A DNA stretch of 63,956 bases, the filler included, from Collodictyon triciliatum (lineage: Eukaryota): NCBI GenBank assembly GCA_043381765.1. It is 26 parts of 26 records of this genome, joined end to end, with 100 filler letters (N's around TTAATTAATTAA, not from the genome) between each part and the next. Parts side by side here need not be neighbours in the genome. Positions count along the whole stretch, not along the records: positions 1 to 2,409 come from JBHJMP010008947.1; 25 more parts are not named here. One strand, written 5' to 3'. Position 1 is the stretch's first letter; each line of letters opens with the position of its first letter. The notes below the pieces were generated by a model. It saw nothing but the letters and a program-made list of their open reading frames with translations, did not search any database and was not told the DNA's origin. Position numbers and translations under genes: made by a program. Shown in pieces: positions 61 through 12,441 of the stretch.

Positions 61-63
<3 letters not shown>

Positions 64-2407
64 AACGCAGTTTCCTTGTCTGAAGAAAAAGGAATAGCCA
101 ACGTCGAATATGTGTCCCTCTCGATGAAGGTTCTCTTTGTTTCTCGCATCGGCCTGAGTGAAGGTGATTTGGACAAGTATATGAAGGATGCGATTGGCAC
201 AGGATTCGAGCTTGCTGAATGGTTTGCGCACCTTTTTTTTAAAAAAAAAAAAAGAAAGAAAATAATCAATATCGCCTGCTTTTTGTTCGTGTTTTAATAT
301 ATTTTGTATATCAAATAGGAAGTCATTCTTCTTTACCCTCATCGAGTCGCTATTCGTCCGTAATGGAAGGTTAGCCCTATTTATCAATATTTTTTCCCTT
401 TATTCGATTCAGAGGTTTATTCGATATTTTAATACTTAAATCGGTATTTTGGCTACAGTTATACTTGATAAAAACTTAATAACTGTTTATAATAGATACA
501 TGTACTTCCACCAGCTGCTGTTGGAGACTGCCGAAAAGGTTTACTTCCCTGAAAAGAAAGAGATGGAAAAAACGCATGAAAAATACGGAAAATGGCTGTT
601 CGGCCAATATTCTGAGGCTGTTGATGTGGATGAGGAGCTTGCTGCTGAGATATGCTACCAGCTTCTGAAGGGAAATTCGTTCGACTTGCTTGTCGAATAT
701 ATGAAGCAAAAACATGTACTTTATTTATATCTGGAATTTATTTTATTATTTTTTCAAATATTTTAATCATAATAAGACGGTATCGCTTATACATCAAAAA
801 TTATCATTATAGGTTATTAGCATCATGCTAGGTGGTCGCTATCGCTACGAGTTCTTTACGTGCTGGAGAGCAATCAACAAAAATGGAGCGGCAAACTACA
901 AAGATGTCTATGGAACTCTGGCTAAGGTAATTTATTATATTTTCTTCTGGGTGTATATGTGTTGCCACTCAAAAAACATACATAAATATGTATCATGATT
1001 TAAATTTAATCTCTTTTTTTCAGTCTTTGGATAATGTGGGGGACCTGCTTGTTGAGTTTTTCTTGGAGTCTTTCGAGAACTCGTTTTTGTTGTCTGTTCT
1101 TAATGTGCGTCTCGGAAAGCATCAATCAGAAGGTATTCAATTCAGCTTTTTTTTTAATCATTTTTATTATGAAAAGGAATTTTTGCGTAGATATAAATAT
1201 ATATTCAATTATGTCAATTTTAGATTCAAAGGCGGCTGATTACCTGAATCTTGGTCGTGTCTACAAGAATCTCCAAAGGTAAAAATACAAGACAACTGTA
1301 TTACAAAAACATCATTATACATCGAATGGAAGCCTTTTCTAAAAAAAAAATAAAATCGAAAAGCTGGGCTGAATCCACAGTCTACTACAAGAAATGTCTC
1401 GATTCGGTTGGGAAAAATGAAGATAATTCCCTGCGTATCGCCACCATTCACGAAGAGATGGGGATTATCTACCAGCAACAGGATAAGTAAGGCTCATCAA
1501 CCACTGTAAAAATATTAGAAATGTTTCAAAAAATGTTCTAATTTTTTCCTTCAATAGAATTGATGAGGCCCTCGATGAATACAAGAAATCACTGGACTTG
1601 AGAGTCAAAGAACTTGGAGAGAACGACTTGCAAGTGGCTCAATCGTACGACCGTTTCGGAGACATCTATGTGAAGCAATCGAGGTAATAATTTAATGTTT
1701 ATCTATTTCTTCATCTTATTTTATGGTTACTTTATGTATGTGTGCTGAACAAAGTTATTATAGGAATGAGCAAGCTCTGGCTGAATACACTAAGGCCATG
1801 GAAATCCGCCAAAAGAAAGTAGGAAACGAGCATCCGCTTGTCGCAACATCGTATCAGAACTATGGCCATGTCTCTCTGGCTGGGAAAAAGTAGTATATTT
1901 ATTCGATTTAAGCTTAATCAAACAAGATTATCATTTATTTTGTGAAAGATTAATCTGATTGAATTGCTAAGGTATGACAAGTCTATCGAAGATTACAACA
2001 CGGCTAAATCAATTCTTGAAAAATCATTGGGAGTGAAGCACGCATATGTTGCCTCAACAATCCAGTTTATTGCAAACGTTCATTTCGCTGGCGGAAAGTT
2101 CGAATTCATCATTTTTAGATTATTTCATACACTTATAGTTTATTCTTCCTCTCAGGTTTTTCAAGATGGATGCTTTGGATTTGGTTTCATATCTTTCTTG
2201 TTTTGGCTCTTCTTTGAGGACGATATTTTTCATAATATAATTAATTATCATAAAACTCTATAAATTTTTTTTTTTTTTTAGGAAAACTGAGGCCTTATCC
2301 TCATTAAAGCAATCGCTAAATATTTTCGTATCTGCCCTGGGTGAAAATCATCCGAATGTTGTGACCTGCTATGAGATGATTGGAGACATCAGCCATGATT
2401 TGAAAGA
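61..2407 (+). CDS. Multi-exon STAND/NACHT (NPHP3/NWD-like) protein fragment: winged-helix/HD2 region followed by TPR repeats; partial at both ends
   Basis: Spliced translation gives LFVSRIGLSEGDL...ESLFVRNG.YMYFHQLLLETAEKVY...H..YGKWL...EICYQL, resembling the post-NTPase region of NPHP3/TEP1/NWD proteins. It is followed by 42-aa TPRs (EALDEYKKSLDLRVKELGENDLQVAQSY; LGENHPNVVTCYEMIG). GT-AG exons at 1364-1486, 1558-1683, 1764-1889, 1972-2097 and 2282-2407. Confidence 0.8.
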
Positions 2408-2409
2408 GT

Positions 2410-7798: not shown

Positions 7799-8170
7799 TG
7801 TCTGACATATACAGGTAATAAAACTCCTTGGAATCATTTTTAAGGTAACTGATTTGTGAGTACTTTTATCAACCCGACAATTTTATCCGCCCTTCTGTCA
7901 GTCTCGAACACTGTGTGAAACCGTGTTGGAGTTTTTTTATTCATGACAGAATAAGATGTTGGCACCCGTGCCTACAATCTTAAAACCATGTTTCATTAAA
8001 CCCACTTCAGGAAGAAAAGTCTGTGTGTAAAAACACTTTGCTATCTTTCTATTTCACCAACCAGTTTATCTTTTCTTACATTCCTATTCATATCTTTCTA
8101 TCTATCTTTTATTTTTATAAACGAAAAATCCAACTACATAAAGTTCAAGTTTTCCGCTGTCTCATCCGTA
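7799..8170. repeat. Dispersed repeat homologous to 40313-40580
   Basis: Collinear conserved blocks, e.g. acccgacaa.tttatccg..cttctgtcagtctcgaacac, agtctg.gtgt....acacttt and gttttcc.ctgtctc.tcc. Confidence 0.8.
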
Positions 8171-10999: not shown

Positions 11000-12441
11000 A
11001 GATGGGCGTGGGGAGGGGGTTACTTCTGTAACATAAAGCGTCAGAACCTTCCAATCGACCAATCGTGCCTAATATACAGCGATAAAAGTATACGATTGAT
11101 AATGAGCTTTTGAAAGACAAAAATTTCGTTCGCCATCGTGGCCAGTGAAGACCAGTCCTTCTTAAACTACACGAATATATGAATTCAATTGCGAGATGCC
11201 GTGGATGCCCGAAAATTCTGCAAAAATAATGTGACACTCATGCGCACAATCTTGCACTCACACCCAGAATCTATTTCTGATTACCAAAAGCAATAGGTAT
11301 CATCTCCCAAAGCCAGAAAAGGTAAAATCGAGACAAGACACCCGTGGATGAAGCGCCCAGAGTCTCAATCAAGACAAAGGTTCAAGAGCGGCCCCAAAAT
11401 CAAGAAACGGATATCGAAATAATGGACGAAACAACAGGCGATTTGCCCGAAAGTGCATCAAGTTCACCAATGAACACGGAAAAAGCAATATCAATCGTGG
11501 AATGGCTTCGAATTGGAGGAAACATCGCCTACCTCCAAGATTCCCAACCTCCTCAAGCCGGTGATATCTCGCCAAGCTCTCCTTTAAACCATGGAGAGGA
11601 CGCCGAGGAAAGGGAAGCCCAAGCCAACTCGGAAACAGAATCGGGAAACAGCATAATGGCACCCAGCAAACCACATCCACTAGCCACCTTAGAGGGCATG
11701 GCTCCTGGGACCACTCAAGAGACTCCGTCTTCAGCAAGTACTGCGCAATCCATAAGAAGCAACGTCCCAGACTCGGGATGGGAAGAACAACAGTCCATCC
11801 AACCTATCGTCGTCATAGAGGGTTCTGCTGAAGAAGAAAGCGAGCAGCTCGAAGCTTCGGGAGCGACAAATTACTCCTCAAGTACTGTTTATGGGCGCAG
11901 ACCTGCTGTCGAAATGCTTGCGACTCCCCAGCGAGAAACGGCTTCCTATTCAAGAAAAAGAAATGTAGACGAATATAAAACACCGGTTACCCATCCTGCA
12001 ATCACTAGCGCACCAAAAAAGACCGAAACCGTCAAAGATAAAGCCTCGCCCGAGGAAAAGAGAATAAATCAGTCAAGTACACCACCGAATATAGCGAGCC
12101 AGAAAGCAATTCAAAATGAAAGTGGAAACATGGTGGCCCTGCCTACCGTGTGGATGAGGGAGAAAAATTGGAACCGAGGGGTACCGATGGTCAACAGAGT
12201 GCATCTCCCAACACACCGGCTACAAAGGGGCTGCAGCCAAAAGCCCAAGACCATCCGACAAACCCTGGTCGAACCGCGAGCAATCATAACACCGGCCAAA
12301 TGAAGGATAACTCGAGTAAACCATCCCACTCTGAGCAGCCCAGCTCCAGCGGAGAGGGCCAATCACCGGAGGCTACGGCCTCCAAAAGCCAATAGATTAT
12401 TAATGCGTTTTAACGTTCTGTCGTGGAACGTTAGGGGGATT
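11000..12441 (+). mobile_element. Degenerate non-LTR retrotransposon (L1/Tx1-like): frameshifted ORF1 and start of ORF2; left boundary approximate
   Basis: Low-complexity S/P/T/E-rich ORF1 pieces (11344-12303, 12150-12395) end in TAG. Seven nt later an ATG at 12403 gives MRFNVLSWNVRGI, the start of an APE endonuclease. Confidence 0.8.

Follow-up and report, generated by a model that had tools for sequence, protein, structure and literature searches.

The stretch of DNA analysed here (the window) is 63,956 nt in length, comes from Collodictyon triciliatum, and consists of 26 separate contigs, each of about 2.4 kb except for the last one (1.36 kb), with N/TTAATTAATTAA spacers between them. Two of these, contig 1 (positions 1-2409) and contig 23 (55106-57503, whose gene is read from the minus strand), carry gene pieces for an NLR-like protein of the STAND class (ATPases of signal transduction that have numerous domains), and the two, taken jointly, code for the C-terminal two thirds of this kind of protein. 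An initial annotation, made from the DNA letters without database searches, had joined the two contigs by a short match between their ends.

Gene structure of contigs 1 and 23

Contig 1 holds an 11-exon piece of a gene with GT..AG introns and without a stop codon, while contig 23 holds three exons. The spliced model of both contigs is 1170 aa in length, with 0 stops in 1170 codons. The exons encoding tetratricopeptide repeats (TPR) measure 126 nt (123 nt in one case) and are all in phase 2, so that one exon corresponds to one 42-aa unit. The features are listed below; P0020, P0022, P0023 and P0030 are predicted proteins of Diphylleia rotans described in a later section, X3 is a public sequencing run which is only guessed to be RNA, and pLDDT is the predicted local distance difference test score of AlphaFold2 models.

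61..221, plus strand: contig 1 exon 1, start of a winged-helix-like region (after NACHT in the relatives); open from the poly-T contig start, likely acceptor at 69-70, GT donor; tblastn 63-65% to P0020 897-944 and P0023 433-478
319..369, plus strand: contig 1 exon 2, winged-helix-like region; the X3 joint 367->494 (GT..AG, cut +2) equals the next intron, 370-495
496..715, plus strand: contig 1 exon 3, end of a putative wing (F-H-Q stretch) and helical region; phmmer query that found the family; the X3 joint 715->813 equals the next intron
813..926, plus strand: contig 1 exon 4, helical region (HD2-like); tblastn 60-63% to P0020, P0022 and P0023
1024..1132, plus strand: contig 1 exon 5, helical region; exon model and tblastn
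1224..1278, plus strand: contig 1 exon 6, which supplies TPR unit 1 with its first helix; tblastn 74-78% to P0022 and P0023
1364..1486, plus strand: contig 1 exon 7, TPR unit, 123 nt, phase 2; exon model, no Pfam match when taken alone
1558..1683, plus strand: contig 1 exon 8, TPR unit, 126 nt, phase 2; TPR_12, E value 1.3e-5
1764..1889, plus strand: contig 1 exon 9, TPR unit, 126 nt, phase 2; TPR_12, E value 2.2e-6
1972..2097, plus strand: contig 1 exon 10, TPR unit, 126 nt, phase 2; TPR_12, E value 1.2e-3
2282..2407, plus strand: contig 1 exon 11, TPR unit, 126 nt, phase 2; TPR_12, E value 3.8e-5; the GT donor, 2408-2409, is formed by the last two bases of the contig
57439..57503, minus strand: contig 23 exon A, incomplete, corresponding to exon 11 of contig 1; 67-nt overlap at 57437-57503, 64/67
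57244..57369, minus strand: contig 23 exon B, TPR unit 6/7, 126 nt, phase 2; TPR_12, E value 1.9e-4; TPR_10, E value 1.9e-3
55106..57152, minus strand: contig 23 exon C, one long exon open to the contig end; exon model
56588..57152, minus strand: start of exon C, last TPR helix and about nine helices, TPR-like solenoid; AlphaFold2 helices at residues 11-197, pLDDT 64-92; 37-41% to P0022 and P0020
56405..56590, minus strand: pentapeptide-repeat beta-helix of about 12 pentads; PF00805, E value 4.4e-15; AlphaFold2 strand per five residues at 206-256
55436..56389, minus strand: seven WD40 units, each 45 aa long apart from a single 44-aa unit, seven-bladed propeller; PF00400, E value 1.2e-68; Tandem Repeats Finder, AlphaFold2 and Foldseek
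55106..55435, minus strand: C-terminal tail, which breaks off within the first half of what resembles a Sel1 motif and is cut about 20-25 aa before the stop of the relatives; 43-54% to the tails of P0020, P0022 and P0030; AlphaFold2 pLDDT below 50

Two of the modelled introns are reproduced exactly by X3 contigs, which skip from 367 to 494 and from 715 to 813 with GT..AG ends. Moreover, one X3 contig lying on the last exon of contig 1 runs from 2404 into exon B of contig 23, spliced at the donor and with one mismatch. No contig from X3, or from two further runs that are freshwater metagenomes by label (X1 and X2; shares of just 0.09 and 0.08, with 6 and 7 short contigs, respectively), extends across the whole stretch. 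In total, 83 X3 contigs match contig 1 at 85-99% identity, with 3, 17, 40 and 23 of them in four identity classes, which indicates that the gene belongs to a sizeable family in which near-identical copies exist. Contigs from three other public runs also match pieces of contig 1, with identity of up to 100%. One X3 contig joins 1277 to 1559 and thereby drops exactly exon 7, reflecting either a paralogue that is one TPR unit shorter or exon skipping.

Domain content of the encoded protein

The 691-aa open frame of contig 23 includes seven WD40 stretches (PF00400; E value 1.2e-68), preceded at residues ~197-258 by pentapeptide repeats (PF00805; E value 4.4e-15) with a score of 55.3 bits against a cut-off of 20.2. 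The TPR_12 profile was matched by five of the six single TPR exons tested, all in the same profile register (E values 2.2e-6 to 1.2e-3), although each is under the 30.1-bit cut-off because the individual pieces are only 40-41 aa in length. In the colinear relatives the same profile has E values of 3.5e-40 (P0020) and 4.5e-40 (P0022).

An AlphaFold2 model of the contig 23 open reading frame (ORF), built from a 3-row alignment (mean pLDDT 72.9), contains nine helices at residues 11-197, a strand every five residues at 206-256, and a seven-bladed propeller at 270-580 (pLDDT 84-97), with the tail unmodelled. The best PDB matches found by Foldseek are seven-bladed WD40 propellers (E value 1e-27; TMt 0.87). 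In the ESM Atlas, the clusters nearest to the helical region are TPR families (score 0.95), with a recognition value of 2023 that is under the 2300 mark and makes this a lead only. The initial annotation had listed at least six TPRs, a helical region, pentapeptide repeats and seven WD40 repeats; the results from Pfam, AlphaFold2 and the relatives agree with this, the number of TPR units being seven.

Two further assignments fared less evenly. The first part of contig 1 had been called a NACHT-type winged-helix/HD2 region. It is indeed homologous to the stretch that follows NACHT in P0020 and P0023, while the putative winged-helix fold falls in a part of the P0023 model (residues 441-507) where pLDDT is below 50. 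The single winged-helix and HD exons gave either nothing in Pfam or a chance-level match (Cas6b_C; E value 0.12), and in PDB sequence searches exon 1 had no match and the best match of exon 3 was at chance level (E value 0.32). The start of a Sel1 repeat had also been suggested at the C-terminus. Here, Pfam found no family at E<=0.01 in the C-terminal 125 aa of the window protein, which is cut by the contig end, whereas the homologous tail of P0020 has one Sel1 stretch (PF08238; E value 3.2e-5) with 24.8 bits, under the cut-off of 30.7.

Overlap of the two contigs

Positions 2343-2409 and the reverse complement of 57437-57503 are identical at 64 of 67 nt (blastn E value 5.6e-25). The overlap places the 3' end of contig 1 onto the 5' end of the contig 23 gene. 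Of the three differences, ACC/GCC exchanges Thr and Ala, and the other two, GAG/GAA and AAA/AAG, are synonymous. The GT donor is common to both copies, as contig 1 ends with ...GA|GT and contig 23 reads ...GA|GTATCT. These are the very features from which the initial annotation started, and both blastn and the codon comparison bear them out. The overlap also stands apart within the window: an all-against-all blastn of the 26 contigs returned three pairs with a match at E<=1e-5, among which only contigs 1 and 23 exceed 80% identity, and no other pair shows an end-to-end overlap of contig ends. At 2364, the Thr/Ala site, contig 1 has A, while the base of contig 23, G, is present in four of four covering X3 contigs (depth 54.6 of 54.6) and in one X1 contig.

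Relatives in Diphylleia rotans and colinearity

With exon 3 of contig 1 (73 aa) as the query, phmmer identified 10 proteins at E<=1e-3. The long matches, P0020 (2619 aa), P0022 (1219 aa), P0023 (655 aa) and P0026 (2314 aa), are all Trinity ORFs of Diphylleia rotans from EukProt. Since the close relatives all come from this CRuMs flagellate, the earlier description of the gene as that of a protist holds. At least five distinct long paralogues, with 34-61% identity, are present in this one organism.

The 1170-aa model aligns with P0022 in a single high-scoring segment pair (residues 18-1169 on 2-1197; 44% identity) and with P0020 in another (residues 12-1087 on 897-1981; 47% identity), in both cases without a gap at the junction of the two contigs. 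P0030 and P0029, which are also ORFs of D. rotans, align in the same way, again with an ungapped junction. The contig 1 and contig 23 parts abut on the relatives at 1326|1331 in P0020, 429|430 in P0022 and 562|563 in P0030, and the ranking of paralogues is the same for both parts, i.e., P0020 > P0022 > P0030 > P0029. The join proposed in the initial annotation thus yields a spliced model that is colinear with four single transcriptome ORFs.

In these relatives, a post-NACHT helical/winged-helix region is followed by seven TPR units and further helices of TPR-like type, after which come a beta-helix of pentapeptide repeats, a propeller of WD40 units and, at the end, a Sel1-like tail. The pentapeptide module was also found in P0022, P0020, P0029 and P0030, and NCBIfam places TPR before pentapeptide in P0020, P0029 and P0030. 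We regard this as strong evidence that, in the predicted proteins, the layout of post-NACHT region, TPR, helices, pentapeptide, WD40 and tail occurs in single transcripts, and that both contigs fall at the same position of the family. The repeat load differs among members: P0026 has TPR only and is farthest from contig 1 (41% and 27% identity), P0022 has seven to eight WD40 units, and P0020 has about 18.

Within the window, tblastn of the family over the 26 contigs gave matches in contigs 1 and 23 only. Word-based searches with the contig 23 ORF, limited to longer proteins, returned 17 matches for region 1-265, all of them pentapeptide proteins, and none for region 1-195, and missed P0020 and P0022. 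A scan of metagenome contigs with exon 3 gave 598 pattern stretches, of which 0 were confirmed.

Upstream NTPase and DUF4062/NIR domain of the relatives

The initial annotation had located the P-loop outside of the window, and both tblastn and a Walker A scan agree. The only Walker A motif in ORFs of at least 40 aa is in an 86-aa frame of contig 14 (32584-34985, plus strand) which is unrelated to the NACHT family. The relatives provide the missing part. P0023 matches, at residues 142-372, the profiles NACHT (27.5 bits; cut-off 26.7), NPHP3_N (27.5 bits; cut-off 24.8) and nSTAND1 (29.6 bits; cut-off 27.1), and contig 1 has 58-59% identity to P0023 433-654, directly after this NTPase. Residues 12-225 encoded by contig 1 have 58-61% identity to P0020 897-1110 and P0023 433-643, starting about 60-80 aa past the NACHT match. 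At the level of the family, the possibility that no NTPase lies upstream, named in the initial annotation as what would speak against a STAND receptor, is therefore contradicted, given that the NACHT of P0023 and P0020 directly precedes the stretch resembling contig 1.

The N-terminal order in P0020 is calponin-homology, DUF4062 (E value 7.9e-11) and then NACHT, whose 25.6 bits fall slightly short of the cut-off. The calponin-homology domain lies within residues 1-280 (PF00307; E value 4.1e-11), ahead of DUF4062 and NACHT. To our knowledge, such an N-terminal addition has no known description for NLR-like proteins. P0026 contains DUF4062 (E value 3.4e-11), NPHP3_N and TPR only; DUF4062 is listed for P0029 too, and the TPR_NPHP3 profile scores on P0022 and P0026. 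According to two recent preprints, DUF4062 is a TIR-like NADase named NIR (bioRxiv 10.64898/2026.09.04.749371; 10.64898/2026.05.01.722283), and the first of these describes a survey of eukaryotes by EukProt v3 search and gives E1008 as the catalytic Glu of human TEP1 (bioRxiv 10.64898/2026.09.04.749371). In an alignment of DUF4062 domains, all 37 have Glu at one column, including those of P0020, P0023, P0026 and P0029, and this Glu corresponds to residue 1013 in a bat TEP1. It is presumably equivalent to human E1008, an equivalence drawn via the bat orthologue rather than the human sequence. The predicted DUF4062/NIR NADase head of the full-length relatives, which the initial annotation had not foreseen, places the family beside TEP1, NWD1/2 and TTC41.

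An AlphaFold2 model of P0023 (pLDDT 62.3) was compared with known folds using VIA-align, with Z values of 13.0 for ORC/Cdc6, 12.9 for NRC2, 11.9 for ZAR1, 11.5 for a STAND-TPR protein, 10.3 for Apaf-1 and 10.1 for NLRP3. The top Foldseek match was EfAvs5 (E value 4.4e-5), with low TM-scores of 0.17-0.28. The model says that the predicted fold is AAA+/STAND-like, and no more. A PDB sequence search with P0023 gave as its best match an unrelated superantigen-like protein at chance level (E value 0.0048).

Similarity among the WD40 units

The seven WD40 units share 80-92% identity at the DNA level, and Tandem Repeats Finder reports a period of 135 with 6.9 copies for the array. Their mean amino acid identity is 0.76 (range 0.69-0.89), compared with 0.35 in P0022 and 0.43 in P0020. 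The differences between units gather at columns 6, 7 and 9, just past G-H-T, and at columns 28 and 30, around the Asp before T-I-R-I-W. Homogenised repeats with few variable positions are the pattern described for fungal allorecognition NLRs (PMC12222747, PMC4986451), and in Podospora the variable repeat sites are reported to lie on the surface through which the propeller makes its interactions (PMC12222747).

Comparison with known systems

Using the NIR, NACHT and winged-helix part of P0020 as a query (761 aa), 37 proteins were matched, including D. rotans paralogues, metazoan DUF4062-NACHT-TPR proteins, TEP1 orthologues, and metagenome proteins with DUF4062, NACHT and WD40. Among the matches listed, TPR and WD40 families occur together in 4 of the 37, namely P0020, P0029, P0030 and the ENA protein P0037, the others having a single repeat type. 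P0022, which was found by phmmer, has the same layout as P0020, P0029 and P0030. P0037 (2162 aa), also a DUF4062-NACHT protein, has its propeller from ~786 and its TPRs at ~1902-2072, i.e., in the order opposite to that of the Diphylleia family. The stack of TPR, pentapeptide and WD40, in this order, is as predicted from these sequences a trait of at least four distinct D. rotans paralogues as well as of the window gene.

The full-length relatives of the window gene share with TEP1, NWD1, NWD2 and TTC41 an N-terminal DUF4062 with the invariant Glu, a NACHT/NPHP3_N-type NTPase, and repeats. The P0020 module matches TEP1 orthologues with 24-28% identity over 71-86% of the 761-aa query. In contrast to the window family, the named mammalian members of this kind have a single repeat type, which is WD40 in the TEP1 matches and, by name only, WD40 in NWD1/2 and TPR in TTC41. 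The window family instead chains TPR, pentapeptide, WD40 and a Sel1-like tail, is without a TROVE domain, and in P0020 adds the calponin-homology domain in front. With NPHP3/KLC-type TPR STANDs it has in common 42-aa TPR_12/TPR_10 units directly after the nucleotide-binding oligomerization domain, and both TPR_NPHP3 and NPHP3_N score on the relatives; a related metazoan example is a Lineus protein with DUF4062, NACHT and TPR, matched at an E value of 1.1e-54. Among the matches listed, however, the TPR families of the NPHP3 type are without WD40, whereas the window family goes on into pentapeptide and WD40.

As in the fungal HNWD proteins (HET-E, HET-D, NWD), a NACHT STAND module is combined with a WD40 sensor of near-alike units with few variable positions. 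The window units differ from these in their mean amino acid identity of 76%, below the 85% criterion discussed below, in having relatives whose effector is NIR and not HET, and in the TPR and pentapeptide modules before the propeller. Bacterial Avs-NIR/STAND defence proteins likewise carry repeats, a STAND NTPase and a NADase effector on one chain, and the P0023 model matches Avs3/Avs5, MalT, CED-4 and plant NLR chains, although at the fold level only and with ORC/Cdc6 AAA+ proteins scoring equally. The window gene, unlike its bacterial counterparts, is eukaryotic and has introns. Proteins of the NB-TPR and NB-WD40 type have been handled as separate classes (PMC7145615), and PMC7159879 deals with bacterial systems. 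In those parts of the literature on NACHT/NLR-like repeat proteins that were available to us, no description of the stacked TPR/pentapeptide/WD40 layout was found; Table S5 of the NIR preprint (bioRxiv 10.64898/2026.09.04.749371) may include these D. rotans proteins.

Interpretation and alternatives

Contigs 1 and 23 are probably pieces of one gene, or of two near-identical copies of it, from an expanded NLR-like STAND family of a Diphylleia-type freshwater protist of the CRuMs, acting by the mechanism proposed below. The protein is a stacked-sensor form of the eukaryotic NIR-NLR-like proteins with a TEP1-clade NACHT, a kind now known, and full-length relatives are already present in a public transcriptome set. 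The two contigs may belong to a single locus or to near-identical paralogues, and the protein is a putative non-self receptor.

A number of observations weigh against this interpretation. With three mismatches in the overlap, the ends of contigs 1 and 23 do not stem from one haplotype. Near-identical paralogues also exist, given that 17 of the 83 X3 contigs are 95-99% alike, and each contig may therefore come from a locus of its own. The family P-loop was absent from all 26 window contigs by tblastn and by Walker A ORF scan, the window likewise holds no NIR domain of this gene, and what is said of the N-terminus is carried over from relatives with 34-61% identity. Under the conditions used in the NIR preprint, the NIR domains of human NWD1, NWD2 and NPHP3 had no NADase activity (bioRxiv 10.64898/2026.09.04.749371), and an active effector is for this reason not assured. 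The fold search with P0023 does not separate STAND from AAA+ proteins of the ORC/Cdc6 type (Z 12.9 vs 13.0). As to the propeller, the ratio of nonsynonymous to synonymous differences (pN/pS) is 1.6 at the five variable columns vs 0.47 elsewhere, a contrast that is partly circular because the five columns were picked after looking at the data. The 'high internal conservation' of fungal NLRs is defined as more than 85% repeat identity over at least 100 aa (PMC4986451), above the mean of 76% of the window units, of which the maximum is 89%. The count of seven is itself provisional because short-read assemblies can misbuild such repeat arrays (PMC12222747).

It is quite possible, if not what we would expect, that the two contigs come from different paralogues. 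In that case, the architecture of the family would be right while this particular joined gene would not exist, and the 3' end of contig 1 might resemble that of P0020, with about 18 WD40 units, or that of P0026, where the repeats are TPR only. Such an origin would fit the three mismatches in 67 nt, the 17 of 83 X3 contigs that are 95-99% alike, the presence of the contig 23 base in every X3 contig covering 2364, and the variation in C-terminal repeat load (P0026 with TPR only, P0022 with 7-8 WD40 units, P0020 with ~18). Yet both contigs have the same ranking of D. rotans relatives, at similar distances and with exact abutment, the TPR-only P0026 is the most distant from contig 1 (41% and 27%), and two of the three differences leave the amino acid unchanged, which is what alleles or very young copies would be expected to show. 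That the overlap arose by chance or as an artefact of assembly, with no such gene in existence, is very improbable. The assembly is admittedly very fragmented, with 26 contigs of ~2.4 kb of which many end in microsatellites or homopolymers; against this stand the blastn E value of 5.6e-25 and the matches of three other public runs to contig 1 pieces at up to 100%, and the idea is already contradicted by the independent transcriptome ORFs that hold the whole layout on one chain.

A different question is whether an intact gene of this kind would serve immunity at all. The nearest named NIR-NACHT relatives are TEP1 orthologues and a protein called nephrocystin-3 by one source, TPR_NPHP3 matches P0022 and P0026, the N-terminal calponin-homology domain of P0020 is a cytoskeletal module, and, according to the NIR preprint, little is known about the biological roles of TEP1, NWD1/2 and TTC41 (bioRxiv 10.64898/2026.09.04.749371). 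These points would suit a housekeeping scaffold of the TEP1/NPHP3/NWD1 type, be it vault-like, ciliary or metabolic, in place of an immune sensor. We consider this unlikely. The family is large and divergent in one organism, with at least five long paralogues and 83 related contigs in one run, the repeat load varies between members, and homogenised WD40 units with focused differences have been reported for fungal allorecognition NLRs (PMC12222747, PMC4986451), not for single-copy scaffolds.

Proposed mechanism and significance

For the non-self receptor that we favour, the following sequence of events can be proposed. At rest, the repeat region would hold the NACHT domain closed, with autoinhibition perhaps being mediated by the TPR solenoid and the pentapeptide helix perhaps serving as a rigid spacer. 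A ligand would bind to the repeats, most likely to the variable face of the propeller, and this binding would make nucleotide exchange and oligomerisation possible. Oligomerisation would then bring the N-terminal NIR domains together, resulting in NAD+ cleavage or signalling. The outcome might be a defence or cell-death response, like that of bacterial Avs-NIR proteins and TIR-NLRs.

More tentatively, and with some doubt that it would hold as a whole, we speculate that the CRuMs, a deep-branching lineage of protists, built their own diversifying family of intracellular receptors, combining a TIR-like NIR NADase and a TEP1-clade NACHT with a three-tier sensor of TPR, pentapeptide and WD40. In such a family, the units of the propeller would be kept alike by homogenisation and would then diverge at surface positions, in the manner of fungal allorecognition NLRs, the pentapeptide helix would be a new NLR element that acts as a rigid spacer or as a nucleic-acid mimic, and the arrangement of one exon per TPR would let the number of units change in frame.

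NLR-like STAND proteins with a DUF4062/NIR NADase head have been recognised across eukaryotes only in preprints of 2026 (bioRxiv 10.64898/2026.09.04.749371; 10.64898/2026.05.01.722283). The present family offers a unicellular, culturable host with expanded NIR-NLR-like proteins. Its homogenised propeller, together with paralogues whose repeat load ranges from TPR only to TPR, pentapeptide and 7 to ~18 WD40 units, could be used to test the role of NIR-NLRs in defence. The family could likewise serve to test a division of labour among the stacked modules, i.e., autoinhibition, spacing and ligand binding. In toto, an overlap of 67 nt between contig ends correctly foretold an architecture of 1170 aa.

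Other features of the window

The GC content is 0.31-0.44 in most of the 26 contigs and 0.47-0.60 in a few, with contig 2 (2510-4918) at 0.50 and contig 26 (62598-63956) at 0.60. The former includes an ORF of 590 aa that matches the MFS_1 transporter family (E value 4.1e-23), and the 413-aa ORF of the latter matched no family in Pfam. Both contigs may derive from another organism in the sample. Three other long ORFs also had no Pfam family at E<=0.01: 527 aa at 22616-24196 (minus strand; contig 10), 462 aa at 30499-31884 (plus strand; contig 13), and 325 aa at 11326-12300 (plus strand; contig 5).

The contigs often start with a microsatellite or homopolymer, such as (TTGTTTTT)n, (GT)n, (ACAT)n, (AGAAA)n or poly-A/T, and it therefore seems that the assembly breaks at simple repeats. 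Contigs 4 and 17 (~7823-7933 and ~40338-40449), as well as contigs 19 and 25 (~45948-46036 and ~60635-60723), have common segments of ~90-110 nt with ~79% identity, which may represent a dispersed repeat or a conserved domain.

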